Origin: Amphiscolops sp. MND2022
Lineage: Eukaryota
Length of the DNA: 64,000 nucleotides
Direction of reading: 5' to 3'
NCBI GenBank assembly: GCA_964187785.1
Contig: OZ076409.1
Span: forward strand, 62,188,001 to 62,252,000
The translations under genes and the position numbers were made by a program. The notes under the pieces are model-generated. The model worked only from the letters and a program-made list of their open reading frames with translations, had not been told where the DNA came from and did no database searches. Shown piece after piece: positions 7,470-55,754 of this stretch; position 1 is the first letter of the stretch; every line of letters begins with the position of its first letter.

Positions 7470-8110
7470 TCCTTTTCGGAACTGCGAGCTTTTCTTCGAA
7501 AATTGAAGAATCGAAAAACTTATTTATATATTTGTTTTTTTTTGTGATAGGTCAGGATAATTCCAAAAGAAAATCTACAGTGCACCCAGGGACACCGAAG
7601 GGCTTTCTTTGGACCTGTAGCATTCGAAACTAAGTTTGTGAAAAAGCAAATCTCCAATGAAATCTATTTGACGCTGAGCGACATTTGGGAGAGGTTTTGC
7701 TGTCACTAGGTGGTCTCCCTTCAGTTTTTTTCTGATGTTTGCAAGAGCGAAAACGAGTCCTTTATGTCCCCCTTGAATATAATTGTGGGAATTTGTAATG
7801 AAGCAAATTTTCTTGAAAGGTCTCACTTTAAATTTTTGAGAATTTTTTAATTGAATGTTTTTTTGTCAATCAGGAAAGGTTCCCTGTTGTGTTTTCCGAC
7901 TTTGTACGCTTTTTTATAGTTGTTTTTCTCAATTCAGTATTTTGAGAGCTGGATTTGGTATGTCATCTTGTCAATGTTTTTTTCAATTGAAATATGTTAG
8001 TTCCGCTTTCCGAAATTACGCCTTTCGAGATGAAAATAACGCAATATCCGAATGATTTGAAAAATGTTCTTGATTTTTTCCCGATCATTTAACTTTATTC
8101 CCGATTCAAA
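7470..8110. repeat. Interspersed repeat; a second diverged copy (13465-13585 + 30214-30690) is split by element A
   Basis: Shared blocks, e.g. GTAGCATTCGAAA...TTTGT | AATGAAATCTATTTG(A/G)CGCTGAGCGACATTT...GGTGGTCTCCCTT, and TTACGCCTTT(C/T)GAGATGAAAATAACGCAATA. Confidence 0.8.
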
Positions 8111-13462: not shown

Positions 13463-13585
13463 TCTTCTTTCGGCACTGTGAGAGTTTGTTTTTTGAGGTG
13501 ATGGGTCAGGAAAGTTCCCAATTAAAATCCATGGACACCAAAAGGCTTCCTTTGATCCCGTAGCATTCGAAATTATGTTTGTAGA

Positions 13586-16500
13586 TGTAGGATTTTTGAC
13601 TTTTCGCTCATGATTTGGTGTTTATTAAATTTTAGTTCATCAGCAAGGTAGATTTTACGGGGTGATATCGTATAAAAGTAAAGATTACAATAAGTACTTC
13701 AAGTACCTCACACTATTGTTTAATGTCAATAATATTGTCTTTAGTCTCGCGGACAACTAAAATAACCATTCTTAACTGCTATGAAGCGGCCGCACAACGT
13801 ATTAATGCAATAAGACGGCCGCCACCACCTAAACCTATGTAAGAAAATTCTAATCGGAACGAAACTTTAACATTGATTTTCTCGATACCTATTGCGAATA
13901 TAAGAAAAATTAAACCACCAAAATGCTCCTTTTCGACCTGACTACGTGTTGAGTAAACATTTAAGAACTTTTCAGTAACGAATTTTCACAGAAAAAGCAT
14001 TAGAAGTCATAAAATACTGTGAATAGAAATTTAGTCAAATTACTATGTTAATACATGTGTTTGAGGGTAAGCGAGAGTGAAAACTCCGCTGTGTGCGTAA
14101 ACAGCATAGAATGCAACTCAGCTAAGCGTGTCAGAAAGCGAAAGGAATGAAATTAAGAACGCGCTGTGAGTGGCTGTACGCATAGCTAATAAGAAAACGG
14201 CCGCCGCACACTTTGAATTAATCCCCCCTCTTAATAGAAATTAAAAATCAAAACCCGATTTCTCGAAGATGAAAAAAGATAGCAACAAACGGTTTTCAGC
14301 ATTCAAAAGCCCATCCAAAGGAGAGCTTAAGTTGAGAATATGAGCGTTGTGCGACCCCGGGAACATATCGGGGAGACGCTTTGAAAATAAGTGCATTGAA
14401 AATTTTGACGATTTTCCAAAATTGAGTTTCCTTTAAAAATTTCGTGTGATCGCTACAGTTGTCAGAAAATGTTCGGATATGGCTTAAATTAAAGATAAAT
14501 GGATGCCCTAACTTGTGTTAATTGGAAAATAAATAATATTCAGTAGTTTTTGAGAACTGAGCCAGCAAACGTTAAAAACAGCCCTAAAATGGCCTAAAAA
14601 GCCGTTTTTCGCATGTTATCGCTTAGTACTCAACGTGTAAGCGCACAATAGCCGCCCCCTTCACAGCGTACTTGAGAATTGAAGTGGAGGAGTGAATAGA
14701 ATAATAAATAGAGTGCTGCGGTGCGCTAGCGAAGAACCCCCAAGAATTTAAAGTTGTGATTTCTTTCAGCCGATAGGGATGTCGACCTACCAAAATGCGA
14801 ACCCCCCCCCGCACGTTTTGGGCGATATCGAGCTGAAACTTTCAGGGTAGACGCACAAGACCCAGGCGCACAGCGTTTAGCAGAAGCGTTTTTCCGAAAA
14901 ATGCCCTGGTTTCGAGATATTGGCCTCCAAAGTTGAAAGTCCAGACATAAAAATCGGGAAAATGACTACTTTCAGAAAAAGTACTATCAAATTTTGTTGA
15001 GAAAAGATAGAGACCTCATCTAAAGTGCAAAATACTCCTAATGGCTTGGGCTAACGATGTATATAAGCCCCCAGCCTGTATCTTTCAAATTGACTGAGTA
15101 CTAGCACTCCAAATTTGAGATTTGTGTGAAAACCGATGGGTGATTTTTGACTACCAAACTTTAAAGGCGTTTTTCATAGTGAAGGAGTTGAAATAGAAAG
15201 AAAACCATGGAGTAAGCTTTTGTAGCCCTTGAATTGTATTTTCAAATGGTGTACTTGGTTTTTGCCTCCCGTGATCGGAACACCTTGTTTTTGCTCTTAG
15301 AAGTTGTAACACGAAAATCGACTTTTTTAGATATGAATTGAAATCGCCTTTTAGGTCATTGTAAATTGTAGAAAATTGTTTCCTTCAGCCATTTTTAGCT
15401 GAAGAGAGTTGTCAGGAACCGCGTGAGAAAAAGAGACCTGGCAAAGAGTGCAAATGTCAATCAGTAAGCCGAAGTTCAAGTCGTGCTTACAAAAGTGGGA
15501 AACACTGAGTCAGTAGCACCACCCCTTAAATTCTATTGAAAACGAAGTAAAACCATCAGTCATGATTGACAAGGAGGTGGAACTAGGACCGACTCGTGCT
15601 GAGAAAATGTACTTCTAATGAACTTTCAGTACCGAAGTAGGAAAAAACTGTATTGCTCAACACTTAGTCAGAACCCGAAAAAGGAAAGATGATAAACTAT
15701 GAATAATGATATGACTAAACTGCCGAAAAAGTAACTTAGGCCGAAGTGTGCGCCATTTTAGCGACACACAAAGTGAGTTGAAATCTAGAGAACGGTTTGC
15801 TGCTTTGCGTCCGATAGCATCCCGCATCAGACACCGGACTATCGAAATTGCAGATTTACTTCGTCTGGCCGGTTAGCCCGTGCCTTCAGCCTAACAACCT
15901 GAAGTTGCCTGATTTGTTGCTACCCCGCTTTTCGCTAGTACGGATTTCGACCCGGGAGTAGGGCGGACTGCTGGTCTATCGTATTACATGTAAAAGAGCC
16001 TAAGTGGGCTGATAATACACGGTTGAGCCTAAGTGGGCTGATAATACACGGTTTAAGCCTAAGTGGGCTGATAATACACGGATTGTTGTTTTCACTCCAA
16101 GACCGATAGAGATTTTGCGGCGAGTTGATTCTTCCGATATCTTCGATATCACCCCCATCCTTACGGATACAAAAACTTAACCTTGCTGAAATTCTTGTTT
16201 ACTGTTCTCTTGTGTTATATGCCTCCTAATATGCCTGCTAATATACTCCGTAATATTCTCCGCTATTATCGATGTTATTATATTATTCATTCTATTATTC
16301 GTGGATGTGAAATTGTATTTGTGTCTATTACTCGACTTATTTATTTGATGTATAGTAATTAAAGTTCAACCTGCTTCTTTTCATCAGCGAAAAGATAATT
16401 TCAAACAGTCCAAGAGTAGCGAGACAAACCCCTGAAAGAGGGAAAAATAGCAAAGTTGTAAAGATCGTGATTTCCTTGTCACACTTACCCCCACCGCCTT

Positions 16501-16658
16501 CGATTTAGTTGATTCGTCTCTTCTTCGGAGTTAATAAAAATTTATGTAGATACTCAGCCAGTCCTTGTCTCGTGCATGGTACCTACGGGTTTAATTGAGT
16601 TGTAGTGGAGCTATTCTCAACAAATAGTTAAAGCTACTGGAAAACTAAAAATCTTACA
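13586..16658 (+). repeat. 5' LTR of element A (3073 bp)
   Basis: TG...CA termini; direct repeat of 27041-30213; AATAAA at 16533-16538. Confidence 0.97.
15996..16082 (+). repeat. 29-bp tandem repeat in the 5' LTR (3 copies)
   Basis: Unit GAGCCTAAGTGGGCTGATAATACACGGTT. Confidence 0.95.
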
Positions 16659-16659
16659 T

Positions 16660-16677
16660 TGGCGCTCCTGGGTGGGC
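16660..16677 (+). promoter_or_regulatory. Primer-binding site, tRNA-Asn type
   Basis: TGGCGCTCCTGGGTGGGC, 1 nt after the LTR end. It is complementary to the conserved 3' end of animal tRNA-Asn(GUU) as recalled from memory. Confidence 0.8.
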
Positions 16678-16770
16678 TTTCTTTGCGTCTTTGTTATTTC
16701 CTCTTTCTTTGCTTACTTCTTTCCCATACCTTCCCTTCATCCCTTGTGAGTTGCTGAACCCTTCTTGACG

Positions 16771-18165
16771 ATGTCTGGAGACGACGACAACGATCAGCAG
16801 ATTTCCCCCGTCACCCAAGAAGACCCCAACGGCACCCATACTCCCGTCACAGGTGGTAGTAAGCCACTCCTCAGTAAGTCCACTAAAATTTCCTTCGTAG
16901 GATTGGCCGACGCGGAAAAGGAGTGTAAAAGAGATGCTTATCGGCGATTGAAAGAAATGGAAAAAGAAATTAAAAGATTCAAAATCGAAGCAGACCTAGA
17001 TTCTGACGACTCCATGGTCCTTGAAAATAAATCTAGAAAAAGACAAAAACCCCTGTACGAAAAATCGCCAATAAAACCAGAAAAGTTCCCCAGCAAAGAT
17101 TACAACCGCTGGGAAAATTGGGTAAAACACTTCAAAGCAGTTGCCAAAGCCAATGGGTGGAATGATAGTCAAAAAATTGCTGCAATACCTACTTGTTTAA
17201 CATCTTGGGCTATTGAAGAATTTGAAACTGTCCCCAAAAGATATATTGAAAAAGAACCCGGTTCTTACCCCCCACGTTTTGATGAACTCCTTGAAATTTT
17301 GAAACCCAAAATGCAGCAATATCGCAGCCAGCGAGCTACGCGGTCGGAATTTAAAGCAGTTAAACAGTGGGAAAATGAAGACCTAAGAGACTACTCGAGA
17401 AGAGTACGTCAACTCGCTGATATAGCCTTTCCTGAAAAATCGCTCCGGGAAAGAGAACGCGATATGAGAGATCAATTTATTGAAGGGCTTTTTGATTCGC
17501 GAATACAACTTAGTTTGTATGAAGACGAGCGTGACCGTGATTTCGGGGAAACTTTGCAACGAGCACAGGAACTCGAAATAATCCACAAGACTCATGAATC
17601 AAAAAGAGAGCGGAAACTTGATAAATTGCGCTATTCGTATGACGAATATGAGGATCCCGATCTAGTGAGAGCTGGCTATGCGAATAATAGTCAAATAGAA
17701 GAAAAATTCGCCGCCATTCAAACATCACTTACCAATGTGGCAAGTCGCTTTGATCGATTTGAAAATTCCATCTGTCAGCAAATATCCAAGCAAACCGATC
17801 AAATAACGAAAAACTTAGAACAAAGTTCCTCGAAACAAGTCGAAATGATGACCAGACAAAACGAAATCCTAATGCAGGGTATGAAAGACATGTCATCTGC
17901 GATCGTAGGAGCGTTAGGAAGTTCGCAAAGGCCGGTTGGTGGGCAGCCTCAGAGTTGGCAAGCTCCCCGTTTTCAAGCCCCTTTCACTCCTAGTTATCGT
18001 GCGCCTCTAAATAGGGCAGGATCGTCGGGTCAGCTAAATGTTTCGCACCCTCCCCCCGAAGAAGCGGAATGTTTTAATTGTAAGGCGATAGGTCACTACG
18101 CTAAGCAATGTCCAAGTCTTCCACAGTCTAATTCTTTAAACTACCGACAGCCGAGTATGCAGTAG
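16771..18165 (+). CDS. gag: Gag of element A
   Basis: ORF track 16765-18165, first ATG at 16771. Retrotransposon capsid-like core (WENWVKHFKAVAKANGW...DQFIEGL) and C-terminal CCHC knuckle CFNCKAIGHYAKQC. Confidence 0.93.
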   Translation: MSGDDDNDQQISPVTQEDPNGTHTPVTGGSKPLLSKSTKISFVGLADAEKECKRDAYRRLKEMEKEIKRFKIEADLDSDDSMVLENKSRKRQKPLYEKSPIKPEKFPSKDYNRWENWVKHFKAVAKANGWNDSQKIAAIPTCLTSWAIEEFETVPKRYIEKEPGSYPPRFDELLEILKPKMQQYRSQRATRSEFKAVKQWENEDLRDYSRRVRQLADIAFPEKSLRERERDMRDQFIEGLFDSRIQLSLYEDERDRDFGETLQRAQELEIIHKTHESKRERKLDKLRYSYDEYEDPDLVRAGYANNSQIEEKFAAIQTSLTNVASRFDRFENSICQQISKQTDQITKNLEQSSSKQVEMMTRQNEILMQGMKDMSSAIVGALGSSQRPVGGQPQSWQAPRFQAPFTPSYRAPLNRAGSSGQLNVSHPPPEEAECFNCKAIGHYAKQCPSLPQSNSLNYRQPSMQ

Positions 18166-18185
18166 CAGGCTCTACTCGCGCTTGG
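18135..18185 (+). promoter_or_regulatory. -1 programmed ribosomal frameshift signal: U UUA AAC plus downstream stem-loop
   Basis: TTTAAAC at 18135-18141 is in the correct gag phase (TCT TTA AAC). The -1 frame is open from there into pol. CGAGTA/TACTCG can pair downstream. Confidence 0.85.
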
Positions 18186-21100
18186 GATTCCATCCCTTCC
18201 CCAGCTGCTACAAATTTTCCACAAACAAGTCAGCGTGTTCGTTCTAGGTCTAGGAGTAACGATAGCCATTTGCGACAGCGCAATCGCAGTAGGCGGATCG
18301 ACCCCGAAACTTGGAAACAAATGTGTGATGAGTTTAGCCCGGGAGGTTTTTTCCCAAAAGAATGCCATACCCTTGTTGTAAATAGTCCCCCAATACAAAA
18401 TCTTTTTGAGGATAAACAAGCGGAGCCTGGCTCCGTGAAAATTTTGTACAAGAAAGAGTCAGAATTTCCAAATCAGGCCCGGTCTGATGAGGTAAAATCG
18501 AGAAAACTTACCCATAGTCAATACATTCCAGGGGCCACGCTTTTAATCCCCTATGAAGTAGAAAGCCTACGGTGTTGGGCCATGATAGACACTGGTGCGA
18601 GTAGAAGTTTGATGAGTTTGGAATTGGCTAAGACTATTGGTAACCCAATAGCTCCCAATCCCAGTCGTTTAACAGGCCCAATAGCCAACGAGATGCCTAC
18701 CAAAGGTATCGTAAAAGCAGAAGTTAAAATCGGAACGTGCGTTGCTTCCGATGAATTCGTGGTTGTAGAAGATCTCTACCCTGAGATCATGATTGGCTTA
18801 AAATTAATGATGGAAAATCAATGCTCGACTGACTTAGTCGAACAAAAACTAACGATCCCCAAAGATGATGGTTTCATCATCAAAATACCCATGCAAGTCC
18901 TAAGCGGTCATGTTCCCCCGCCGGAAGATGACGCATTTGTTTGCGAGACGGTACCCGGTCCTGACACAGTATCAGCGGCCTCCGAAATAAACGAAAAACT
19001 CGAACAGGAAGTTGACGAAATTTTAAATTTAGCCACCCCTGGACTCGAGAACGCCGAAATAAAGGAAAAATTGCGAGATTTGATTCGTGATTACAGAGAT
19101 GTGTTTTTACTGCCTTCAGACCCGTTAGGAACCGCTGTAGGAGTAGAACACCGCATAGACATAGGCGATGCGAAACCGTTCAAAATTTCGCCCTACAAAA
19201 TTGCTCCGCATAAATTAGAAGCCGTTCGTGAAGAAATTCGCGAGATGCTTGAGAAAGGAGTGATCGTACCGAGTAAAAGTCCTTTCAGTAGTCCCATAGT
19301 AATGGTACCTAAGAAAGATGGCTCAAACCGAATGTGTATAGATTATCGAAAGTTGAACGACCTTACCGTAAAGGACGCGTATCCGTTGCCCCGGATCGGT
19401 CAAACGATTGATGCACTGCAAGGGGCGGGAGTCTTCTCGTCTCTCGATTTAGCAAGTGGCTATTGGCAGATTCCAGTCGCGGCCGAAGACCGGCACAAAA
19501 CGGCGTTTTGTACTCCGGATGGAGGATTATTTGAGTGCTTGAAAATGCCGTTTGGCTTAACGAACGCCCCGCCAACTTTCCAAAGGAACATGAACGACAT
19601 TTTTAAAGAAGATCTATATAAACATGTGCTCATATTCCTAGATGATGTGCTAACGTTTAGCAAAACTCCAGAAGAACATTTGGAGCATTTAGAAAAGGTG
19701 TTTATAGTTTTGCGCAAAGCCGGTTTACGTCTTAAACCGAAGAAATGCAACTTATTCCGCACCGAGGTCCACTATCTAGGTCATGTGATTAACAAGGAAG
19801 GGATCCAACCGGATCCGAAAAAGTTAGCGGCAGTACGCGAATGGGAGCCTCCGACCGACGTCACCGGAGTTCGCTCATTTGTTGCCTTCTGCAACTATTA
19901 TCGGAAGTTTGTCCAAAATTTCGCCGAAGTGGCTCGACCACTTTATTTGTTGACGAGCAAAGGATTAAAATTCACATGGACCGAAGAACATGATAAAGCG
20001 TTCCGAACGCTGAAGAAAAGATTGTTAGAAGCTCCAATTTTGGCATTTCCAAATTTTGAACTTCCGTTCATTATTGATACTGATGCTAGTGATACGGCGC
20101 TCGGCGCAGTTTTGTCGCAAGTGATCGATGGGATAGAGTATCCAATTGCCTTTGAGTCGCGAGTTCTAACTAAAACAGAGGTAAATTATGCAACAACCAA
20201 AAGAGAAGCGCTAGGTGTAGTTCAAGCCGTCCAGTGGTTCAGACCGTACATTTACGGATCCAAATGCATTATCCGCACGGATCATGCAAGTCTTCAATGG
20301 TTGTTTAGGCAAAATGCGGATGGAATGACTTTTCGAATGGTTCAGAAACTTCAGGAGTATGACTATCAAATAGTACATCGTCCAGGTGATAAACATTGCA
20401 ATGCGGACGGTCTTAGTCGACGACCGAATGACGTACCCCAATGGCTCCCCGGCGAAGAAGATGCGTTAAGGGGACCGATCCCCGAATTCACCGAATTTGA
20501 TAGTGCTTTGTTTGAAGCCGAACGCGATCTTCGAGCCGCCCGAACCAAAGCTCGTGAGAAATTGGAAAACTCAGAGGATGTAGCTCGGCATTTGAAAATG
20601 CAAATTTCTCACCCACCTAGAGAGGTAGTCCGTTATCGAGAAGGGGATTTTTTCGAATCCCCCGATTCCTTAGTATTGTGTGTATCTGCCGACATGAGAG
20701 TAGCCACTGCTCCCATGAAATCGTTTGTGAAAAAATATTCCCATTTACCACCTCTCGCAGAGTCGGTAAACCGTGTTGGAGGTTTTCTAGTGTACCAAGA
20801 TGTTGAAAAAGGACGTTATGTGTACATATTGATCACCAAGCATTGTAAAGGAGAAGTTGCCAAATACGATGTATTAAAAGAAAGTCTATTGAGAGTGAAA
20901 GAACATGCTAGTTCCCATGGAATTTCCAAACTTGCAATGCCTAGAATAGGTTGCGTCGACGACGAACTAGAATGGATAAATGTAGCTATTTGTCTAGAGG
21001 TTGTGTTTCAAGATTCGTATTTTACGATCTCCGTGTATACACCGAGAGACCAAGAGCATCTGTACCCTTCGAGTTCGGCAAGACGAGGTACCCCGCGTTC

Positions 21101-22964
21101 ATCAAGTGTAGATTCCGCCTGTTCCGTCGTTACCCCTGAAGAAATGTTAGTATCAGAGCAAGTGGGGGGGCATATCTCATGGACTAGATCAGATAGCGAC
21201 CTAGCGTATGGTCAGAGAATGGATCGTAGTACGGGATTACTATTCCGTGAAATGGTTAGACGTGGAATTCGGATAGATGGTACATTGGAAGATTTAGGGC
21301 CCAACCCCATCCCCAGAGAAGTAGCATTAGAATGGAGTTGTCCAGAGGCGTTAGAACTTTGGAGTAATTGGGATCAGCTAGCGCTGGCCAATCGAGTCCT
21401 TTATCGAAAATGGAAACCTAGCAATCGTGAACGTGAAATATGGCAGGCAGTCGTTCCTTCGACTATGAGAGCCGAAGTGTTACATCAGTTACATGACTCC
21501 CCTCTTAGCGGAGGTCATTTTGCAGCCGAGAAAACGTTATCAAGGATTAAACAGAGATTTTGGTGGCCTGGTCTCAGGTCAAGTGTAGAAAAGTATATTG
21601 CAAAATGCACGCGTTGCGCGGCTAGATCAACGGCGGGAAAAGGTCGAAAAGCTCATTTGCAAACAATCGAAGCAAAGGCGCCGTTTCGTATTGTTGCAGC
21701 AGATATTTTGGGACCCGTAACGCTAGCGAAAAAGTCACAGGCGCGATACATTTTAGTTATATCCGATTTGTATACAAAGTATGCGGTTGCCGTTCCTTTG
21801 AAAGACATGACGGCTAAGACGGTGGCCACGACTTTAGTCGAAGAGTGGATTTTGAAATTTGGAGCTCCCGATACTTTACATACGGATCAAGGAACTAACT
21901 TCAACAGCGAAGTAATGAAAGATATTTGCCAAGTTTTCATGATCGATAAAACTAGGACTTCTCCGTATCATCCCCAAGGAAATGGTCAAGTAGAAAGGTT
22001 CAATAGAGTCATTGCCGATACTATCTCTAAGTATTGTGCCGAAAAACCGCAGGAGTGGGATCTCTACTTGCCCCACGTCAATTTTGTGTACAATACCACC
22101 GTACATAAGACCCTCGGTACGACCCCGTTTTCGATGTTGTACGGGAGAGAAGCACAATATCCGATCGACTTATTCTATCCAAAACCTCCTGGCGACCCCC
22201 GTTTAGAATTAGGCGAGGTAGGAGCCGAGTTGAGTGATAAACTATTCGAAGTACATAGTCATGCGCAACTGACTATGGGGAAAGAACAACGTCGTCAGAA
22301 GGATTATTATCAGAAAAAGGTCCATGGAAAAAGTTTTAAAACAGGAGACCGAGTGTGGTTATTCGAGCCACACAAAGCGAAATCCCGAAAGTTCCATCTC
22401 CCTTGGCACGGTCCATACGAAGTATTGAGTCAGACCAGTGAAGTGAACTATCAGATTTGCAAGCCAGGTTGCCCGGAAAATTGGCAGAATATCCATTTTA
22501 ATCGTCTTAAACCGTATCTTGGCGAATCCCTCCCGAAACGATCCGAACGAGAGGCGACAAAAACGCTTCCGAGTTATGAAGAAGTCGCAGATGAATCCGA
22601 TTCATCCGACCAAGAGACCGAAAATAGACCGTATCATGTGTTCCGCCCTACTTCGGCGGAAATCCAAGCCAATAAAAACCGGCCGCACGTGTCATTTCAT
22701 GACGTTCCCCGCGTGATAAGCGCCGAAAACGACGAAGAGACTACTCTGACTAATTGCCCGTTGTATATAGACGTCCCCGCACCGTCAGAGGAGTCTTCAT
22801 TTCCTGTTTATGAAGAAATAAACGACAATAGAAATACTTCGCCTCCTTCAGACGAGGAGGACAACGAAAGCGAACGTTCAGATTCGCTGATAATCGAAAC
22901 GACACGGAATCGTCGACCGCCAGTACGCTTCGGCATAGACGAACACGTGGTAAAGCCAAAATAA
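18135..22964 (+). CDS. pol: Pol of element A: protease, RT, RNase H, macrodomain, integrase
   Basis: MIDTGAS (PR); KMPFGL and IFLDD (RT); DTDAS and TDH (RH); TARG1-like segment at ~20625-21041; H..H..CTRC zinc finger, D-D-E core and GPY motif (IN). Uninterrupted ORF. Confidence 0.97.
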   Translation, partial: FKLPTAEYAVAGSTRAWDSIPSPAATNFPQTSQRVRSRSRSNDSHLRQRNRSRRIDPETWKQMCDEFSPGGFFPKECHTLVVNSPPIQNLFEDKQAEPGSVKILYKKESEFPNQARSDEVKSRKLTHSQYIPGATLLIPYEVESLRCWAMIDTGASRSLMSLELAKTIGNPIAPNPSRLTGPIANEMPTKGIVKAEVKIGTCVASDEFVVVEDLYPEIMIGLKLMMENQCSTDLVEQKLTIPKDDGFIIKIPMQVLSGHVPPPEDDAFVCETVPGPDTVSAASEINEKLEQEVDEILNLATPGLENAEIKEKLRDLIRDYRDVFLLPSDPLGTAVGVEHRIDIGDAKPFKISPYKIAPHKLEAVREEIREMLEKGVIVPSKSPFSSPIVMVPKKDGSNRMCIDYRKLNDLTVKDAYPLPRIGQTIDALQGAGVFSSLDLASGYWQIPVAAEDRHKTAFCTPDGGLFECLKMPFGLTNAPPTFQRNMNDIFKEDLYKHVLIFLDDVLTFSKTPEEHLEHLEKVFIVLRKAGLRLKPKKCNLFRTEVHYLGHVINKEGIQPDPKKLAAVREWEPPTDVTGVRSFVAFCNYYRKFVQNFAEVARPLYLLTSKGLKFTWTEEHDKAFRTLKKRLLEAPILAFPNFELPFIIDTDASDTALGAVLSQVIDGIEYPIAFESRVLTKTEVNYATTKREALGVVQAVQWFRPYIYGSKCIIRTDHASLQWLFRQNADGMTFRMVQKLQEYDYQIVHRPGDKHCNADGLSRRPNDVPQWLPGEEDALRGPIPEFTEFDSALFEAERDLRAARTKAREKLENSEDVARHLKMQISHPPREVVRYREGDFFESPDSLVLCVSADMRVATAPMKSFVKKYSHLPPLAESVNRVGGFLVYQDVEKGRYVYILITKHCKGEVAKYDVLKESLLRVKEHASSHGISKLAMPRIGCVDDELEWINVAICLEVVFQDSYFTISVYTPRDQEHLYPSSSARRGTPRSSSVDSACSVVTPEEMLVSEQVGGHISWTRSDSDLAYGQRMDRSTGLLFREMVRRGIRIDGTLEDLGPNPIPREVALEWSCPEALELWSNWDQLALANRVLYRKWKPSNREREIWQAVVPSTMRAEVLHQLHDSPLSGGHFAAEKTLSRIKQRFWWPGLRSSVEKYIAKCTRCAARSTAGKGRKAHLQTIEAKAPFRIVAADILGPVTLAKKSQARYILVISDLYTKYAVAVPLKDMTAKTVATTLVEEWILKFGAPDTLHTDQGTNFNSEVMKDICQVFMIDKTRTSPYHPQGNGQVERFNRVIADTISKYCAEKPQEWDLYLPHVNFVYNTTVHKTLGTTPFSMLYGREAQYPIDLFYPKPPGDPRLELGEVGAELSDKLFEVHSHAQLTMGKEQRRQKDYYQKKVHGKSFKTGDRVWLFEPHKAKSRKFHLPWHGPYEVLSQTSEVNYQICKPGCPENWQNIHFNRLKPYLGESLPKRSEREATKTLPSYEEVADESDSSDQETENRPYHVFRPTSAEIQANKNRPHVSFHDVPRVISAENDEETTLTNCPLYIDVPAPSEESSFPVYEEINDNRNTSPPSDEEDNESERSDSLIIETTRNRRPPVRFGIDEHVVKPK

Positions 22965-23339
22965 CAATGATGTCTTCGGGTGATGGTCAGGTGAGTTGAG
23001 TCATCCGAAGTAATGAAGCTCATCATTCGTTTAGCCGTTCGTGAGCATGACTAATCGAATTAACGTAAGCTCGAACAGTCCGTCACGAGGTGCTGAGTCA
23101 GAAAAAGAGCGTCATCCGTGTCGCTATCGACTCTGCTTCATTCCGTAATTTAACCTCAACTTAGCCAGTCGCTAGAATAGAAAAATTGTAATTATCAACT
23201 CTACAATCAATTCGATCGACTTTTGCCTTCCGTATTACGCTTTAGAAACCTTAAAAAAAACCTATTATCGTCTTGTGCTATCTTATTATACCCTATTATC
23301 AACTTTCGTCCTCTTCCGACTCGCTAGTATAGTCGCAGG

Positions 23340-25606
23340 ATGAAACTTTTGGTACTTGTTATCATTATTTTCACGGGTGATATTCGAGGAGACGAAGACA
23401 CCTTCGACCCCTTCGACTTCCAGCGGAGATTCAACCAACCCGGGTTCGTAAATGGTACTCATTCTATTTCCGGCGCGGCATTCACTCCGGAACCGCCAGT
23501 TGTACTCGTTAAGTCTATCAACACCACTTGGACTTATATTCCATTTCCCCAAATACCCCAATTGGACCCGGAACCACTGAACGAAATTTTGGACAATGCA
23601 TTAGCTCGACTAGTATCCCTTGATATCCGTATGTTCCATCATGAATGTGTTGACCCTCATTTATTCGAATATTGGAAAAGATTTTTGCGCGACAACCTTG
23701 CAGAAATTTTTCAAAGCCATAAAATGTTTCAACAAGATTGGCTAGCAATGCGGAGAGCGCTAACCGTATTTCTTAACCATACGGTAGACGACATTCCGTT
23801 AGAAAAACCTAATCGCTACTCTCGATCTATTGTTGGAACCGTAGCGGGATCGATGATCGGAAGTGAGCTAGCTCATGTCTTTCTGCGCCCGATATTTGGC
23901 TCCGTGACAGATAAAATCTCCTGCTTCGTTGATGACCTGATCCCCTTTGGATCCGTGTGCCGAAGTAAAGAACGGGAAATTATTGAAGAACTGGCCAGAG
24001 AAATTAAAGTGTTACAAGATGAGGTAGTTTATTTGAGAACGGAGCTGTTAGAAGCGATAACCGTACGCTTGCCTGCTGATGTAGAAGGCCGAAAGTTATT
24101 GACGCTAAAACAGTCCTTAGACGATAACATCAAGATGTTAAATAGCACCGTTAATGGAGTGATAGACGAAATAACGGATTATGTAGAGAAAGCAGAGTGT
24201 GTTGTTAGGCTAACTCAAGACCGACACCGTAACCCTCTAATTATAGCCGCCGCCTTCCAAAATCTAACTACTCAGTATAAAAGAATTGTGAATGATATCA
24301 ACCAGAGACGCATTTCGTTGTCCAATATGGCGTCTATGCTACAAGAAGCTATGTCATCGCTAGTCCATGGCTACTTGCCAATTTCCTTAATTCCGCCGTC
24401 GACGTTAAAGAAAATTTTAGACTCTTATCATGTTACCGGTCTTAATGAGGCTATCCCCAGGAAATTAATCGCCGCCTACTATTGGTTTGAAATTGTAAGA
24501 GATGCGTATGTGACGGATGAAGGTTTACACATGTTGCTCGAAATTCCAATGTACGCGGGACACGGAATTCATGAAGTATATCGAGCGACTCCAATCCCGC
24601 AACCGATTCCCAATTCCGAACGCGCAACGCAATATCAACTTACAAAAACACATTTGTTAATGTCTTGGGATAAAACAAATTTTGCGGAAGTAACCGAACA
24701 AGAATTGTCAAGGCATTGTTGGGGCTCCCACCGGCTTAGGCTATGTAAACAACCTTTCTCGACTACTAAATCGCAGAAAACGACGTGTCTCATCGGTTTG
24801 TTCTTTAATCTCCCTGCCACCGTACTGAAGTTGTGTGCACAAGAAGTTGTAGCCCTTCCGCAGCATCCCCAAGCCATATACTTATACGATTCAACTTATT
24901 TGTTAACCTCGGCCAAAGGCGACTTTACCATGCAAAATATGACCGGCACAATTGACTACCGAGTTCCCGGATGCCAAAGTTGTCTAGTTCGGCCTACGTG
25001 TGAAGGAAGACTGCAGCTCCCGAACGCTGGCTTGTTCTTGACTCCTGACCCGGTATCCTGTGCAACAGGTAAAGCCAGCGAAATCGTCCGAATCATGCCT
25101 ACCCCTCTACTACGTCCTTTATTCGAAAATCTGAAAGACCTAGAAGAGGTAATTCCTCCCTCTTTAATGGGAGATGTCCATCAAGAATTGTTATCTCATT
25201 TAAAATTAAACTTAGCAGGATTGCCAGACCGAGCAATTACGGAAGAAATGCTAGACGCAATTGCTAAGCCATTTTTAACTGAGGTCGAAAAGGTTCATTC
25301 AACCGTCATCAAAAAGTGTGGAAAGATATTGTGTTACCTTGTGTTGTCACATTAATTGTTTTAATTTTATTTGCACTGTTGTGCTGGGCGATCAAGAAGG
25401 GACAACTATTCCTCATGCAGCGGTGCATTCAGCGAGTACTGGGTTGGAGACGAAGAGGAGGAGACGAAACCGATGCAGACCGGCTGGCTCGCATAGCAGA
25501 GCAACTCCAAAATCTTCCCACTACATCCGCACGGGAGGAAGTGAAAACAGGGACCGGTGACTCTGTCCCAACGGAGACGAAGAAGCCAAAGCCTCATCCA
25601 AAATGA
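23340..25606 (+). CDS. env: Env (class I fusion protein); ectodomain 23340-25355, TM and cytoplasmic tail in the -1 frame 25316-25606
   Basis: Signal peptide MKLLVLVIIIFTG, furin-like RYSR followed by a hydrophobic Gly-rich fusion peptide (SIVGTVAGSMIG), heptad repeats, Cys-rich region and several N-x-T sequons. TM segment IVLPCVVTLIVLILFALLCWAI lies in the shifted frame. A CAG acceptor-like site precedes the ATG. Confidence 0.88.
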
Positions 25607-25838
25607 GAGTCTTCCCGAGAAAAACCGTGAGAATATATGTAACTTGTGCTGATTTGTACTAAACTCCACCCCCCCTGTATTTATTTGCCCTCATAACTCA
25701 ACTGATAGGTCATTCTACGGTGTTCCCCACTTGGACAAACGAGGGAAAATTTTTAAAAAGTTGTGATAAACGATATGTCAATCAATTAAATGATGGGAAA
25801 GTAAAATTTTACAAAAATAACAAAAAAAATCCAGTCAG

Positions 25839-25867
25839 TATAAAAATTGTTCCTTAACTGATCAGTC
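25839..25867 (+). promoter_or_regulatory. Putative internal promoter (TATAAAA plus TCAGTC initiator) for ORF4
   Basis: TATAAAA at 25839-25845 and TCAGT at 25862-25866, about 65 nt upstream of the ATG at 25930. Confidence 0.55.
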
Positions 25868-25929
25868 GTTTACATTTGCAACCACCTCAAAATTTATTTT
25901 CAACTTAAAGATAGAAAACACTCTTGAAA

Positions 25930-26763
25930 ATGCAATCTACGTCGTCTGCCAGTACTTACAATATTCAAGGAGGAAACTTGTCAGCCTTTGTGCCAACGCA
26001 ATTGTACAGCACCGCAAATGATGACACCCGTAATGCGAATATGCCCATGACATCAGGCGTTCTGCCGCTCACATTACGAGCAGGAAACCCACTGACTACC
26101 TACCGATTAAACAAAATCGAAACACCCGCGCCTGGCGTGGACTATATCTATTTCCACCTGGAGAAGTACTCTCCGCTGGACGCATTGTGGTATCCCCAGT
26201 GGATGAGACTGAGCTTATACTGCGAAATGACCCGGCAAATTCTGATGGCAGTAATTCAGGCCTCCATCGAAAAACCCGAACGGAGCAATTTTATGGCTAC
26301 TTTGGTAAGGATTCTTGCCTTGCCTGACGAAGGCCCCAGAGCTGAGGGGAATCCCCTCAGTACTAGATTTCACTGGAGAGCACCGATGCATCAATATATG
26401 TGGAGTTGGGTGCAGCACGGAGAATCTCCCTGGGATAGATCTTTCCAGGTCCACCCCCAGCCGCCCCACCGCCCACGAGTGGACATCAACTCCTTCCAAC
26501 GAGCTATGTTTAGACATCTAACTCTAGATAACGAAACGTCGACCACAACAACTGCAGTCTCTACGCCCACTACTGTCAGCAGCACCACCTCTGCTTCGCG
26601 CGCGGGAGCGGCGGTGTTCGATGCAGATAGCAGCGACACGGAGAGTGTAAACACTACTGCAGCCGTGATATTTCCAACACCATCAAAGAGAAAAGTCCTA
26701 CAAAAAAGGAACTCGCGAACCCGAGAGGAAAGTACTTCAATGCCATCTACCTCGGAAAACTAG
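25930..26763 (+). CDS. ORF4: accessory protein of unknown function (~277 aa)
   Basis: Intact, relatively GC-rich ORF between env and the PPT. Trp-rich central domain, Ser/Thr-rich tail and basic NLS-like PSKRKV. Confidence 0.75.
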   Translation: MQSTSSASTYNIQGGNLSAFVPTQLYSTANDDTRNANMPMTSGVLPLTLRAGNPLTTYRLNKIETPAPGVDYIYFHLEKYSPLDALWYPQWMRLSLYCEMTRQILMAVIQASIEKPERSNFMATLVRILALPDEGPRAEGNPLSTRFHWRAPMHQYMWSWVQHGESPWDRSFQVHPQPPHRPRVDINSFQRAMFRHLTLDNETSTTTTAVSTPTTVSSTTSASRAGAAVFDADSSDTESVNTTAAVIFPTPSKRKVLQKRNSRTREESTSMPSTSEN

Positions 26764-27027
26764 AAACTTCCATGAAAACCCGGTGAAAATCCGTCAACTT
26801 TTTATAAAATGGAGTACATTATTGTGAGTGAAAGTATGTTGTATCTAATTAATTTATTATCAATGTGAAGTGGTTGTAATAATAATTCAAGAGCACTTGT
26901 GTTCACAATAACCAGTAAAAAGAATTACACAAGGCAAAAATTAATGCTGACTGGATGACATTCTAGCCAATCACCTAGGACTACACTAAAATTTAAATAA
27001 ACCAACTACTCAGGAGAGTAGTAGTCC

Positions 27028-27040
27028 AAGTGGGGGGGAA
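27028..27040 (+). promoter_or_regulatory. Polypurine tract of element A
   Basis: AAGTGGGGGGGAA immediately before the 3' LTR, preceded by the hairpin ACTACTC-AGGA-GAGTAGT (27005-27022). Confidence 0.9.
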
Positions 27041-30000
27041 TGTAGGATTTTTGACTTTTCGCTCATGATTTGGTGTTTATTAAATTTTAGTTCATCAGCA
27101 AGGTAGATTTTACGGGGTGATATCGTATAAAAGTAAAGATTACAATAAGTACTTCAAGTACCTCACACTATTGTTTAATGTCAATAATATTGTCTTTAGT
27201 CTCGCGGACAACTAAAATAACCATTCTTAACTGCTATGAAGCGGCCGCACAACGTATTAATGCAATAAGACGGCCGCCACCACCTAAACCTATGTAAGAA
27301 AATTCTAATCGGAACGAAACTTTAACATTGATTTTCTCGATACCTATTGCGAATATAAGAAAAATTAAACCACCAAAATGCTCCTTTTTGACCTGACTAC
27401 GTGTTGAGTAAACATTTAAGAACTTTTCAGTAACGAATTTTCACAGAAAAAGCATTAGAAGTCATAAAATACTGTGAATAGAAATTTAGTCAAATTACTA
27501 TGTTAATACATGTGTTTGAGGGTAAGCGAGAGTGAAAACTCCGCTGTGTGCGTGAACAGCATAGAATGCAACTCAGCTAAGCGTGTCAGAAAGCGAAAGG
27601 AATGAAATTAAGAACGCGCTGTGAGTGGCTGTACGCATAGCTAATAAGAAAACGGCCGCCGCACACTTTGAATTAATCCCCCCTCTTAATAGAAATTAAA
27701 AATCAAAACCCGATTTCTCGAAGATGAAAAAAGATAGCAACAAACGGTTTTCAGCATTCAAAAGCCCATCCAAAGGAGAGCTTAAGTTGAGAATATGAGC
27801 GTTGTGCGACCCCGGGAACATATCGGGGAGACGCTTTGAAAATAAGTGCATTGAAAATTTTGACGATTTTCCAAAATTGAGTTTCCTTTAAAAATTTCGT
27901 GTGATCGCTACAGTTGTCAGAAAATGTTCGGATATGGCTTAAATTAAAGATAAATGGATGCCCTAACTTGTGTTAATTGGAAAATAAATAATATTCAGTA
28001 GTTTTTGAGAACTGAGCCAGCAAACGTTAAAAACAGCCCTAAAATGGCCTAAAAAGCCGTTTTTCGCATGTTATCGCTTAGTACTCAACGTGTAAGCGCA
28101 CAATAGCCGCCCCCTTCACAGCGTACTTGAGAATTGAAGTGGAGGAGTGAATAGAATAATAAATAGAGTGCTGCGGTGCGCTAGCGAAGAAGCCCCAAGA
28201 ATTTAAAGTTGTGATTTCTTTCAGCCGATAGGGATGTCGACCTACCAAAATGCGAACCCCCCCCGCACGTTTTGGGCGATATCGAGCTGAAACTTTCAGG
28301 GTAGACGCACAAGACCCAGGCGCACAGCGTTTAGAAGAAGCGTTTTTCCGAAAAGTGCCCTGGTTTCGAGATATTGGCCTCCAAAGTTGAAAGTCCAGAC
28401 ATAAAAATCGGGAAAATGACTACTTTCAGAAAAAGTACTATCAAATTTTGTTGAGAAAAGATAGAGACCTCATCTAAAGTGCAAAACACTCCTAATGGCT
28501 TGGGCTAACGATGTATCTAAGCCCCCAGCCTGTATCTTTCAAATTGACGGAGTACTAGCACTCCAAAGTTGAGATTTGTGTGAAAATCGATGGGTGATTT
28601 TTGACTACCAAACTTTAAAGGCGTTTTTCATAGTGAAGGAGTTGAAATAGAAAGAAAACCATGGAGTAAGCTTTTGTAGCCCTTGAATTGTACTTTCAAA
28701 AGGTGTACTTGGTTTTTGCCCCCCGTGATCGGAACACCTTGTTTTTGCCCTTAGAAGTTGTAACACGAAAATCGAATTGAAATCGCCTTTTAGGTCATTG
28801 TAAATTGTAGAAAATTGTTTCCTTCAGCCATTTTTAGCTGAAGAGAGTTGTCAGGAACCGCGTGAGAAAAAGAGACCTGGCAAAGAGTGCAAATGTCAAT
28901 CAGTAAGCCGAAGTTCAAGTCGTGCTTACAAAAGTGGGAAACACTGAGTCAGTAGCACCACCCCTTAAATTCTATTGAAAACGAAGTAAAACCATCAGTC
29001 ATGATTGACAAGGAGGTGGAACTAGGACCGACTCGTGCTGAGAAAATGTACTTCTAATGAACTTTCAGTACCGAAGTAGGAAAAAACTGTATTGCTCAAC
29101 ACTTAGTCAGAACCCGAAAAAGGAAAGATGATAAACTATGAATAATGATATGACTAAACTGCCGAAAAAGTAACTTAGGCCGAAGTGTGCGCCATTTTAG
29201 CGACACACAAAGTGAGTTGAAATCTAGAGAACGGTTTGCTGCTTTGCGTCCGATAGCATCCCGCATCAGACACCGGACTATCGAAATTGCAGATTTACTT
29301 CGTCTGGCCGGTTAGCCCGTGCCTTCAGCCTAACAACCTGAAGTTGCCTGATTTGTTGCTACCCCGCTTTTCGCTAGTACGGATTTCGACCCGGGAGTAG
29401 GGTGGACTGCTGGTCTATCGTATTACATGTAAAAGAGCCTAAGTGGGCTGATAATACACGGTTGAGCCTAAGTGGGCTGATAATACACGGTTGAGCCTAA
29501 GTGGGCTGATAATACACGGTTGAGCCTAAGTGGGCTGATAATACACGGTTGAGCCTAAGTGGGCTGATAATACACGGTTAAGCCTAAGTGGGCTGATAAT
29601 ACACGGTTTAAGCCTAAGTGGGCTGATAATACACGGATTGTTGTTTTCACTCCAAGACCGATAGAGATTTTGCGGCGAGTTGATTCTTCCGATATCTTCG
29701 ATATCACCCCCATCCTTACGGATACAAAAACTTAACCTTGCTGAATTTCTTGTTTACTGTTCTCTTGTGTTATATGCCTCCTAATATGCCTGCTAATATA
29801 CTCCGTAATATTCTCCGCTATTATCGATGTTATTATATTATTCATTCTATTATTCGTGGATGTGAAATTGTATTTGTGTCTATTACTCGACTTATTTATT
29901 TGATGTATAGTAATTAAAGTTCAACCTGCTTCTTTTCATCAGCGAAAAGATAATTTCAAACAGTCCAAGAGTAGCGAGACAAACCCCTGAAAGAGGGAAA

Positions 30001-30213
30001 AATAGCAAAGTTGTAAAGATCGTGATTTCCTTGTCACACTTACCCCCACCGCCTTCGATTAAGTTGATTCGTCTCTTCTTCGGAGTTAATAAAAATTTAT
30101 GTAGATACTCAGCCAGTCCTTGTCTCGTGCATGGTACCTACGGGTTTAATTGAGTTGTAGTGGAGCTATTCTCAACAAATAGTTAAAGCTACTGGAAAAC
30201 TAAAAATCTTACA
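27041..30213 (+). repeat. 3' LTR of element A (3173 bp)
   Basis: Direct repeat of 13586-16658. The length difference is explained by four extra 29-bp units, a 15-nt deletion and a 1-nt C-run difference. Confidence 0.97.
29435..29637 (+). repeat. 29-bp tandem repeat in the 3' LTR (7 copies)
   Basis: Same unit as at 15996; copies start at 29435, 29464, 29493, 29522, 29551, 29580 and 29610. Confidence 0.95.
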
Positions 30214-32567
30214 GTAGAGAAGAAAAGACCAAATGAAATCTATTTGGCGCTGAGCGACATTTTGGAGAGTTATTCTGTCGCTTGGTGGTCTCCCTTTAGA
30301 TTTTTCTAATGTTTGCGAAAAAACGCGTATATTTGTATCTGAAGCGTCCCTCTTCATATAATTGTGGAATCTTTAATTGAAACAAGTTTTCTTGAATGTT
30401 GCTACCTTAGATTTTCAGAGAGTTTTTAAAATGAATGATTGTGTTTCTAACTGGAAGGGTTCTCTTCTGTGTTTTCGGGTTTTGTACGCTTTTTCTATAT
30501 TTGATTTTCACAATTCAGTGTTCTGAGAGCTGGAATTGGTATGTGATCGTTGTCAAAAATTTTTCCAATTGAATTATGTTTATTTCGCTTTCCGATATTA
30601 CGCCTTTTGAGATGAAAATAACGCAATAATCGAATTAATTGATGAATGTTCGTGAATTTTTCCGAACTATTAACTTTATTGCCAATTTTCACCGAATCTT
30701 ATAAAGACAAAGGCGAGGCAAATATACTCCGCGTCAAAAAAAGTCAAAAAAGACAAAACTTAAATTGCAAATATCTCGTATTTGACGCAACCTAGAAGTG
30801 TAATATTTTACAACAAGCAAAGCCATCAACAGATAGTCAGTTATACTTAATTTAATATGGGATTACTCCTCCACGATTCGCAATACAGAGTTGTAAACGG
30901 CGGTGTATTCTTTTTGCATAGAGCATTATTTTTCTATTATTTTTCCAGAGCACTTTTGGGTGGATAATGACTGTGCAAAATTTTAAAAAATTGCAAGGTC
31001 AGTTTTTGAGAAATTCGAATTTTTCACTGAAAGATCGGCAGAAAAAAGGTACGATTGCATAAATTGTTGAAATTTTTTTTCGACTCCTCAAAAAAACTTC
31101 GAACTTTTTGAGCGGTGCGCCGAGTTGAAACCACGTTTCATTCAGCATAGTGATAAATAGTTGGTCAAAACAAAACAGATCAAAGTGTATGACCATTGTT
31201 TCACTTTTCATCAATTTATCTATTATCAAAAAAGACCCTTGAGCGTTCCGAACATACTTTATTAAACGATGAAGTTTCTTAAAAAGTAATGCTTACATTT
31301 TCTTCAGAAGAGTTTTCCTTGCATTTGCAATAACTGCGTATTCCCAATGTTAGAATTAATACTGCACTTAGTCACTAGTTCAATTGCAAAAGATATACTT
31401 TAAAAAGATTTTGAAACCAGCTCTTTTGAGAGTAAATATTGATTGTTAGCAATGCAAGTAGTGTCCGAATCGGTTGGAAAATTGTCTTCACAGATCTACA
31501 TACTTCTGGCTTCTCGTGTCGTTCTTCTTGAACTATCAACAAAATAACGTTTAAACCTAATATCATTTTCCGCAAGGAAAAAATACAAGTTGCTTTGATC
31601 TATTCGATGTTGTAATGATGTCTAGGCTATTAAAAACTTTTGCATCATATTACCGTCTGAAGGGTTTCATTCTACTTTTATTCGTGATCAGCTCTTGTAT
31701 CTACGTGTTCAATCCAAATATATTATCCAATGAGAAGTTAGTTAGCAATGATCACATTTTAAGGAATTAAACGAGGAATTGGTGTTATTGAATGCATAAA
31801 TACATTTTAAAAATTTATTACAACTGTCTTTTTGAAGTTAGGGACTTTTTTGTATGTTGCCGAATAGTAAAAATTTATAGAACGTGAGAGGAATTCAGCG
31901 GCTTTGAAAACTCGTCGTAACCATTTCTTAAATCAACCAATTGTGGCATTAAAAAACGCCTGAAATTGGCGTTCTTTTTGCGTGTAAAAATACTTACGCA
32001 AAAAGTCTACGTTACTCTAAATAATGATTTTTGATCAAAAGGAAAGATTATTTAATCAACCAATATAATATACAAATGAGCATGAACGAGAAACATCTTC
32101 TCGTATTAACAACGCTCATGACTAGAATATTTTTTGTGAGCATTGATCATCCTAAAAATCCCCCCTCTGAAAAAAGAAAACGGATAATGTCTTTCAGACC
32201 CTTTTCCCAGGAAAAGCTGCCAAGTTTCATCGCATTTTTCAGAACACATTTCAACATGCTCAATCATACAAAGATCATTGTCTTTTCCGTGCTACTCACA
32301 TAGGAACATCATGATGATATTTAGTTTTTTAAGTAACCATTTCTCAAAGATATCTTGTAAAACATGCATAATTTTGCAAGACCTTGCCGGGAAAGAAAAA
32401 ACCAATTCAAAATTAATATTATTATAACAAGACGTGAACGTATCAAGTCGTTCAAAGTTCAAAGTTCCAAAAGTGCAGAGTGTTCCAGATGTGAAAAAAA
32501 CACTGAATTCCTTGATTAAAAGATGCATCACTTTGTTTCCTTTAAAAAACGCAGTGTGATTAATAAT

Positions 32568-40625: not shown

Positions 40626-40853
40626 AGAAAATTAAATTCGATTCAGGAGACTAGCCCTGAATTGTTTTGCCTTTTCTCTTTTTTATCTTTTATCTTTTAG
40701 TCCCAAGGCGATTCTTTTGAATAAATAATTGGGACAACTAACAAAACCCCTTTAGAAGAATAAATACGGGGCAAAGAAAGAACAGAAATGGAAATTCAAC
40801 AAAAGAAATAAACAAAGTTTACAGTTTGAGAGTACATATATACATATGCACAT

Positions 40854-55554: not shown

Positions 55555-55754
55555 NNNNNNNNNNNNNNNNNNNNNNNNNNNNNNNNNNNNNNNNNNNNNN
55601 NNNNNNNNNNNNNNNNNNNNNNNNNNNNNNNNNNNNNNNNNNNNNNNNNNNNNNNNNNNNNNNNNNNNNNNNNNNNNNNNNNNNNNNNNNNNNNNNNNNN
55701 NNNNNNNNNNNNNNNNNNNNNNNNNNNNNNNNNNNNNNNNNNNNNNNNNNNNNN
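55555..55754. other. Assembly gap (200 N)
   Basis: Run of N. Confidence 1.

Follow-up and report, generated by a model that had tools for sequence, protein, structure and literature searches.

The errantiviruses of Drosophila have three ORFs and short LTRs. The members gypsy, ZAM and Idefix (ICTV Errantivirus) combine, like the element described here, an Env related to the baculovirus F protein with a Ty3/gypsy Pol; they differ from it by a duplicated 'pseudo' RNase H and by Ser or Lys primers (PMC13524379), and their infectivity has been shown, whereas that of the present element is putative. F-type env genes are common in invertebrate Ty3/gypsy elements and have arisen in many lineages, and Chary and Hayashi (2026, PMC13524379) describe 1,512 gypsy elements with such genes across animals; hence the presence of an F-type env in our element is unsurprising. 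The 'ancient errantiviruses' of that study share with it the gag-pol-env order, LTRs with a primer binding site (PBS), an F-type Env that has a furin site and an anchor, the presence of many near-identical copies, and a single RNase H separated from the integrase by a bridge region. To this plan the present element adds a TARG1-type macrodomain in the bridge region, a conserved fourth ORF after env and 3-kb LTRs. The bridge-region domains described in PMC13524379 do not include a macrodomain, and 'macro' occurs 0 times in its main text. Among the env-element rows listed from its table, the LTR exceeds 1 kb in 2 of 22; LTR calling was capped there at a bit score of 5,000, which by our own estimate would miss 3-kb LTRs of the present kind. 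Moreover, an Asn-type PBS is rare in that set (7 entries among the 1,151 elements with a PBS).

Outside insects, the gypsy elements Tor of Oikopleura (PMC4402516) and TelKA of bdelloid rotifers (PMC5408684) carry Env as the third gene and have TSDs of 4-5 bp and near-identical LTRs, and the Env of Tor is a cleaved membrane glycoprotein (PMC4402516). The accounts consulted of these two elements mention neither a macrodomain nor a fourth gene (PMC5408684 contains neither 'macro' nor 'ORF4', and PMC4402516 does not contain 'fourth'). In Cer1, CERV replaces env (PMC10309623), whereas the orphan ORF4 found here is additional to a true F-type env. Fish epsilon-like endogenous retroviruses have likewise captured a macrodomain (PMC4977317), but they belong to the Retroviridae and not to gypsy. 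LTR retrotransposons with ORFs 3' of env or with multi-kb LTRs have been described, and the giant gypsy elements Ogre and Burro have multi-kb LTRs and extra ORFs as our element does; unlike it, Ogre is a plant lineage, and the env of Burro lies between gag and pol in the same reading frame (PMC6431247).

We analysed a stretch of 64,000 nt, here called the window; all coordinates below are positions in it, and all features lie on the + strand. The window contains an element of 16.6 kb with two LTRs, a 5-bp TSD, a PBS, a polypurine tract, gag, pol, env and ORF4, which we regard as quite probably a recent insertion of a Ty3/gypsy retrotransposon with an env gene, an errantivirus as PMC13524379 broadly uses the term, whose family has conserved two additional modules. 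The 5' LTR (13586..16658; 3,073 bp) and the 3' LTR (27041..30213; 3,173 bp) both have TG...CA ends, and the same 5 bases stand at 13581..13585 and 30214..30218. The flanks match an older uninterrupted repeat; when both are joined they align unbroken to a copy of it at 7531-8106 (590 columns, 77%), which independently supports the insertion site. The LTRs are identical at 3,040 of 3,057 aligned bases (99.4%), with 17 substitutions and gaps of 1, 15 and 116 bases. The largest gap stems from a 29-bp array, which has about 3 copies in the 5' LTR (15996-16085) and about 7 in the 3' LTR (29435-29636). The substitutions are clustered, 12 of the 17 lying within 14737-15295, and the remainder of the LTR is ~0.2% different; none of 20,000 random draws was as high (12/17 in 560 nt, a window size picked post hoc). 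These clustered differences may come from assembly mixing of copies. The element is a recent insertion, real and young. The original prediction had described a perfect TSD, LTRs ~99% identical by eye, intact gag, pol and ORF4, and an env intact apart from one frame change; present measurements agree with each of these points, as gag, pol and ORF4 are all open and env has a single break.

A candidate poly(A) signal lies at 16533 in the 5' LTR, and the polypurine tract was read from the sequence at 27028..27040. The PBS (16660..16678) starts 1 base past the 5' LTR and is of tRNA-Asn or tRNA-Arg type; over its 19 nt it presumably fits tRNA-Asn better. The 12-nt complement is one mismatch from Asn_GUU and one from Arg_ACG (tRNA table, PMC13524379 supplement 1). 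A tRNA matching the PBS was also sought in prokaryote genomes, where 3 loci were found and 0 of the 3 were tRNAs. Codon-position bias was detected in gag (p 4e-7), pol (p 1e-25), env (p 2e-10) and ORF4 (p 0.02), and none was detected in the LTR (p 0.47).

The gag gene (16771..18165) encodes 464 aa from the first ATG, within an open frame of 471 aa from stop to stop (16750-18165), and contains one CCHC zinc knuckle (PF00098, 25.2 bits, cut-off 20.8). The pol gene (18132..22964; 1,610 aa) is in the -1 frame relative to gag, and a predicted -1 frameshift site, an X XXY YYZ slippery heptamer in the gag frame, is located at 18135..18141; when a frameshift stimulator was sought 3' of the heptamer, the structure there was no more stable than shuffles (z -0.98). 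Pol runs in the order protease, RT, RNase H, macrodomain, bridge region and integrase with an H2C2 finger and a p58-C (GPY/F) domain. A Pfam search found a single RNase H, and the bridge stretch before the integrase, the region in which the 'ancient errantiviruses' of PMC13524379 have a 'mini' domain, is conserved, with 44-57% identity in other lineages. Compared with solved structures, RT-RNase H scored best to Ty3 (302 bits), followed by the next family (194), foamy (148) and MLV (106), which is a similarity ranking and not a tree. By this homology Pol is assigned to Ty3/gypsy (Metaviridae), and the element has the features of that family, namely TG...CA LTRs, PBS, polypurine tract, short TSD, Pol order and an RT nearest to Ty3. 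Membership of the Retroviridae was rejected because by score RT-RNase H is much closer to Ty3 and Env is F-type. RT-related loci were sought in viral contigs, and none was found.

The macrodomain announced by the original prediction is real: between RNase H and integrase, at 20640..21047, Pol carries a domain of TARG1/OARD1 type with remodelled ligand loops (E 1.9e-20 to PDB 4J5Q/4J5R), to which a DarG model gave E 6e-6, far below the DarG cut-off. It is present in 8 Pol clusters from five lineages and is 58-70% identical in the four other lineages. Human TARG1/OARD1 (C6orf130; PDB 4J5Q, 4J5R) and DarG belong to the same sequence family and have the same Thr83, Lys84 and Asp125 positions; in contrast to them, the element domain has lost the GxG glycine and the glycine-rich loop, and sits inside Pol. 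In TARG1, Thr83-Lys84 and Asp125 are called catalytic (PMC6397177, PMC9967889), and the TARG1 pattern is TKx(30,35)Px[IL]GxGxD, of which GxG is the pyrophosphate-binding loop (PMC6397177). With TARG1 residue numbers assigned manually along the PDB chain, the Asp125 position is Asp in 8/8 aligned macrodomains and the Lys84 position is Lys in 7/8; moreover the spacing of the pattern is kept (33 residues), and the stretch around the catalytic Asp is near invariant in a domain that is only 58-70% identical as a whole. These retained positions, and the fact that TARG1 itself reverses DNA ADP-ribosylation (PMC9967889), are consistent with a working, altered TARG1/DarG-like hydrolase which would remove ADP-ribose from RNA, cDNA or proteins of the element and so counter a host defence by ADP-ribosylation. 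We consider such a hydrolase possible but rather doubtful: the second glycine of GxG is Val or Ile in 8/8, which breaks the pattern, other residues stand in place of the glycine-rich loop that follows Ser35 in 8/8, and the N-terminal GD has lost its Asp in 4/5 lineages. Thus the macrodomain looks remodelled and not like a canonical enzyme, and because the phosphate-loop glycine is gone, we lean slightly towards a binding or spacer module as the most likely reading. Because the macrodomain is part of Pol, it would, less surely, be packaged with RT and integrase and act on particle RNA, cDNA or proteins. A search for macrodomains in gypsy Pol outside the present family, limited to proteins sharing exact 5-residue words, found none. 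The only metagenome match was weak, in a phage-like contig and outside any listed ORF, and was dropped.

The env gene is split over two frames in the present copy. The first frame (23340..25355) encodes a hydrophobic N-terminus, R-X-X-R at residue 159, a fusion-peptide-like stretch, heptad regions and a cysteine-rich F-type core, and the second (25283..25606) encodes the transmembrane anchor and cytoplasmic tail and aligns to residues 657-750 of the natural relative P0007 (E 1e-6). The first frame breaks near window position 25,325; as far as that point, about residue 662, it matches a whole natural relative at 98%. In the relative P0001 the anchor is at residues 664-682. Signal peptide, furin site, fusion peptide and anchor are in one frame in whole natural relatives, and each of the 6 whole Env relatives examined has one R-X-X-R site, located at residue 146-162, and a hydrophobic anchor at its C-terminus. 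An Env profile matched the 'fusion protein' of PDB 9W4C/9W4D (E 5e-12 and 9e-12), and 3 of the 35 scanned relatives passed the Baculo_F cut-off of Pfam; the window's own Env had no match in Pfam, and Atlas matches to F families were of low recognition value. By these profile searches the Env-like ORF of the original prediction is an F-type glycoprotein and a predicted class I fusion protein. An AlphaFold model of P0001 (18 rows) reached a pLDDT of 38, and a fold search with it gave no usable match.

We rejected a programmed frameshift as an explanation for the env break, since in near-identical relatives the frame is uninterrupted. In the Env cluster of the window, 10 of the 15 listed near-identical members are whole (755 aa) and 5 are fragments, and 0 of 20 relatives compared have a terminus at the place of the break. 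This is also the sole break in 16.6 kb, with uninterrupted frames in gag, pol and ORF4, and a mixing of copies in the assembly may likewise account for the clustered LTR differences; an assembly error in a fully intact copy thus has nearly an even chance of being the explanation, although a real lesion is possible in a young copy. As it stands, the present copy's Env would lack its membrane anchor, and its whole relatives could make an anchored Env. The broken Env and the many fragments among Env cluster members, including those in the nearest cluster, together with the transmission route of most such elements, which according to PMC13524379 is not known, could suggest that the family is purely intracellular and that Env and ORF4 are passengers or membrane-trafficking factors without infection. 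We find this improbable: at least four subfamilies, at 65-74% identity, retain a complete Env that has its cleavage site and anchor, which needs selection, and fragments are expected among old insertions.

The fourth gene, ORF4 (25930..26763), encodes an orphan protein of 277 aa from its ATG, with a conserved core of about 170 aa and a Ser/Thr-rich tail (42%) with a basic patch at its end; by eye it has no hydrophobic anchor. Its homologues form 37 clusters, with 48-71% identity between six subfamilies. Relatives of ORF4 sought in Pfam, PDB sequences, PHROGs, NCBIfam and Atlas gave no match (in Pfam also none for 14 members), and no related locus was found in viral contigs. An AlphaFold model of the core (68 rows) reached a pLDDT of 42, and fold searches gave nothing usable. 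The idea of a PC4/Whirly-like protein had no support (Pfam 0/14 members; hhalign probability 0.4%, against a PC4 alignment of just 3 sequences from 251 genomes; poor fold model). Because these databases gave no match, a role for ORF4 can be proposed by analogy only and is a guess; the most likely one, which we suggest tentatively, may be to regulate, in the nucleus, the RNA or the transcription of the element itself, similar to CERV or Rev, and CERV is a precedent for a regulatory gene other than env in a gypsy element (PMC10309623). A contig size of 338,047 nt is common to a sister-family Env (77% identical), macrodomain Pol (67%) and ORF4 (62% over 172 aa). When contigs were matched by size only, not by DNA, ORF4 and env coincided in 7/8 for one ORF4 cluster, of a sister family, and in 3/13 for a second ORF4 cluster; in the other clusters the counts, from small listed samples of large Env clusters, were 0/14, 0/9, 0/15, 0/15, 0/9, 1/12 and 1/29. 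Some ORF4 subfamilies may occur in env-less elements.

The original prediction proposed a distinct lineage, and this is borne out by the four-gene layout and the macrodomain, which are conserved across diverged subfamilies. Its contrast with an errantivirus norm of three ORFs and sub-kb LTRs stands in part: the extras and the macrodomain are conserved, but env, ORFs after env and multi-kb LTRs were already on record (PMC13524379, PMC6431247). In the literature searched, with most subscription journals outside its scope, no gypsy element with macrodomain, env and ORF4 was found so described. OARD1-like annotations occur on gypsy polyproteins of other animals. With these annotations, with env-bearing gypsy elements catalogued by the thousand (PMC13524379) and with macro domains on record in fish endogenous retroviruses (PMC4977317, citing Basta et al. 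2009), a family of this organisation could already have been described in Repbase, GyDB, Dfam or elsewhere in the literature; this seems unlikely to us, as no such layout was found, the bridge-region domains of PMC13524379 lack it, and the close relatives of Env, ORF4 and macrodomain Pol are all unnamed ENA proteins. The parts consulted of PMC6338049, on retrotransposon accessory domains, have no passage on a macrodomain. Cargo beyond env is hardly studied in invertebrate gypsy elements, and here an orphan gene and a TARG1-type domain are kept across subfamilies that are 25-50% different in these proteins, giving two small testable proteins. ORF4 would represent a new family of accessory proteins. 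Should the macrodomain bind or remove ADP-ribose, this would point to a host retroelement defence using the ADP-ribose mark; if it does neither, a captured enzyme was turned to a new job within Pol. It is conceivable, yet quite unlikely, that an invertebrate gypsy lineage independently reached the organisation of complex retroviruses, with an infectious F-type Env, a Rev- or CERV-like regulator in ORF4 and a TARG1-type domain in Pol defending the replication complex against host ADP-ribosylation; this would point to invertebrates using ADP-ribosylation as a defence against retroelements.

By analogy with known gypsy elements, transcription from the 5' LTR would yield a genome RNA of about 13.5 kb, which would be translated to Gag and, through the -1 frameshift, to Gag-Pol. 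Reverse transcription would be primed by a tRNA in particles, and integration would generate the 5-bp duplication. Env would be made from a subgenomic RNA and cleaved by furin, allowing passage from cell to cell within the host toward the germ line. Splice-donor motifs were not enriched (8 observed, 8.7 expected). The placement of two donor-like motifs, at 16746 ahead of gag and at 22991 past the end of pol, and of a pyrimidine-rich acceptor at 23327 ahead of env is suggestive.

The interest of the env-carrying Ty3/gypsy element at 13586-30213 lies in two testable extras, a macrodomain in Pol and ORF4, and not in env. What the original prediction observed was confirmed, and how it read the element was supported in part; the predicted span was exact when the LTR ends and the flanking 5-base duplication were located. 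The LTRs are 3,073 and 3,173 bp long, both open with TG and close with CA, and five identical bases stand on either side of the pair. Because the two flanks, once joined, match an older repeat at 7531-8106 as a single piece (one continuous alignment of 590 columns, 77%), the insertion point is confirmed. The LTRs agree at 3,040 of 3,057 aligned bases, and 12 of the 17 substitutions fall inside 560 bases (14737-15295 versus the 3′ LTR), an interval whose size was chosen for the clustering test after the data had been seen; the rest of the LTRs is ∼0.2% divergent. This patch suggests gene conversion, an exchange between copies by recombination, or copies mixed during assembly, and thus the insertion may be younger than the 99.4% LTR identity implies. 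A 15-base LTR gap lies in or beside the patch. A 29-bp tandem array within the LTR, possibly an enhancer array, has ∼3 copies at 15996-16085 versus ∼7 at 29435-29636.

The PBS begins one base past the 5′ LTR, a purine tract lies directly 5′ of the 3′ LTR, and a longer PBS match presumably favours tRNA-Asn over tRNA-Arg. Against the tRNA table of PMC13524379, the PBS has one mismatch to a tRNA-Asn end and one to a tRNA-Arg end. The leader from PBS to gag (16678-16770, 93 bases) is 78% pyrimidine. Gag has a single zinc knuckle, and pol lies in the -1 frame relative to gag. Where the two overlap, the gag frame holds a canonical slippery heptamer; no notably stable hairpin was found 3′ of the heptamer. 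Protease, RT, RNase H and integrase follow one another in gypsy order, and in a similarity ranking of RT-RNase H against solved structures Ty3 scored 302 bits and every other family at most 194.

The Env of the window (two frames, 23340-25355 and 25283-25606) gave no Pfam match on its own. It has 51 close relatives, a profile from 18 relatives reached 329 proteins among 1.84 billion, and the Baculo_F cut-off was passed by 3 of the 35 relatives scanned. A 53-sequence profile matched PDB 9W4C/9W4D (‘fusion protein’, E 5e-12) across the cysteine-rich core and F0 proteins more weakly, and all six whole relatives examined carry an R-X-X-R motif at residue 146-162 and an anchor at the C-terminus. 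The Env-like ORF of the original prediction is thus probably an F-type fusion protein, a fold call that rests on profiles, the structure model being of low quality. A larger group of whole F-like database proteins (P0142, P0147 and P0189-P0286; 600-870 aa, most without a Pfam match) connects this Env family to Baculo_F. The frame break near 25,325, immediately upstream of the anchor, is private to the window copy, either a lesion or an assembly error, because 10 of the 15 listed members of its Env cluster are complete at 755 aa and not one of the 20 relatives compared has the same end point.

Pol residues 837-972, between RNase H and integrase, match human TARG1/OARD1 (E 2e-20). Searching Pol-sized proteins by exact word matches, which remote cases in other animals could escape, we found the macrodomain in eight clusters, all of them ENA proteins that also carry RT and RNase H. 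There are five macrodomain lineages, with identity to the window of 58-70% in the macrodomain versus 80-90% in RT. The catalytic residues of TARG1 are Lys84 and Asp125, according to the portions consulted of PMC6397177 and PMC9967889. We aligned the window with seven of the eight clusters (P0290 was omitted as a near copy of P0289), and the Lys84 position is Lys in seven of these eight sequences and the Asp125 position is Asp in all of them. In all eight, Val or Ile takes the place of the second glycine in the GxG pyrophosphate loop, and the glycine-rich loop that follows Ser35 has been replaced; four of the five lineages have lost the Asp of the N-terminal GD. Since the catalytic positions are mostly kept but the published TARG1 pattern (as excerpted from PMC6397177) fails at the second GxG glycine, the macrodomain is, judged from its sequence, TARG1-derived and under constraint, yet no plain member of the TARG1 enzyme family.

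ORF4 (25930-26763, 277 aa) has relatives in 37 clusters, all from ENA, and six subfamily representatives share 48-71% mutual identity in well-supported clades. It consists of ∼170 conserved core residues and a Ser/Thr-rich tail with a basic patch, it matched nothing in Pfam, PDB, NCBIfam, PHROGs or Atlas, and its structure model is poor. A PC4-like identity was unsupported by profile-alignment comparison. Linkage of ORF4 to env, judged solely from equal-sized contigs, was seen for 7 of 8 in the subfamily of the database relative P0114 and 3 of 13 in the window's own subfamily; the other seven groups gave 0/14, 0/9, 0/15, 0/15, 0/9, 1/12 and 1/29, these low-match groups being compared with the 15 listed members of Env clusters sized 472 and 206. 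Because one contig size is common to an Env (77% identity to the window's), a macrodomain Pol (67%) and an ORF4 (62%), the whole layout appears to recur in a diverged sister family.

This recurrence favours the predicted distinct lineage. In the literature searched, no gypsy element with a macrodomain, env and a fourth gene was found. Env and multicopy youth are ordinary because 1,512 env-carrying gypsy elements, F-type and gB-type and of many lineages, are recorded across animals in PMC13524379. The text of that survey describes bridge-region domains without a macrodomain, whereas the window element has one there; the survey's sequences and figures could hold a relative. Macro domains are also present in fish ERVs (PMC4977317), and PMC6431247 mentions, among LTR retrotransposons, ORFs 3′ of env and LTRs 1.9-6.5 kb long.

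Replication would proceed as in any gypsy element. Env would be made from a subgenomic RNA and allow passage between host cells, by analogy with Drosophila errantiviruses and Tor (PMC13524379 and PMC4402516, both in extract). The macrodomain would act at the replication complex because it would be made and packaged along with RT and integrase, and its function there is somewhat more likely to be binding or spacing than hydrolysis. ORF4 seems soluble, its tail is basic, and it is a tentative candidate for a nuclear regulator resembling CERV of Cer1, as presented in part of PMC10309623.

GC is 27-50% in most bins of the window, and further transposon remains are present. The region at 8122-13452, old and A-rich and flanked by 205-bp direct repeats (79%), has a remnant at 10110-10433 that looks RT-like by eye and has no Pfam match; the region is probably what is left of a decayed element, with the young element inserted nearby. 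A second young gypsy element of 16 kb (32568-48596) has 1,736-bp LTRs with two mismatches, a 5-bp TSD and a PBS-like start; its gag starts at 33691, within its 5′ LTR, and its pol (35418-40625) has the standard domains. Three to four minus-strand ORFs (389, 186, 408 and 290 aa) and a plus-strand ORF (266 aa), all without Pfam matches, lie 3′ of that pol, and no env was seen in this element. A minus-strand reverse-transcriptase fragment at 49270-49869 (PF00078, E 1e-18) is of non-LTR type by eye. Finally, at 52433-58144 there is a tandem duplication of ∼2.3 kb (90-92%) spanning a 200-base gap. It includes a double jelly-roll match at 56332-56832 that is weak and falls below the cut-off (E 0.002), possibly from Maverick/Polinton-like capsid remains.
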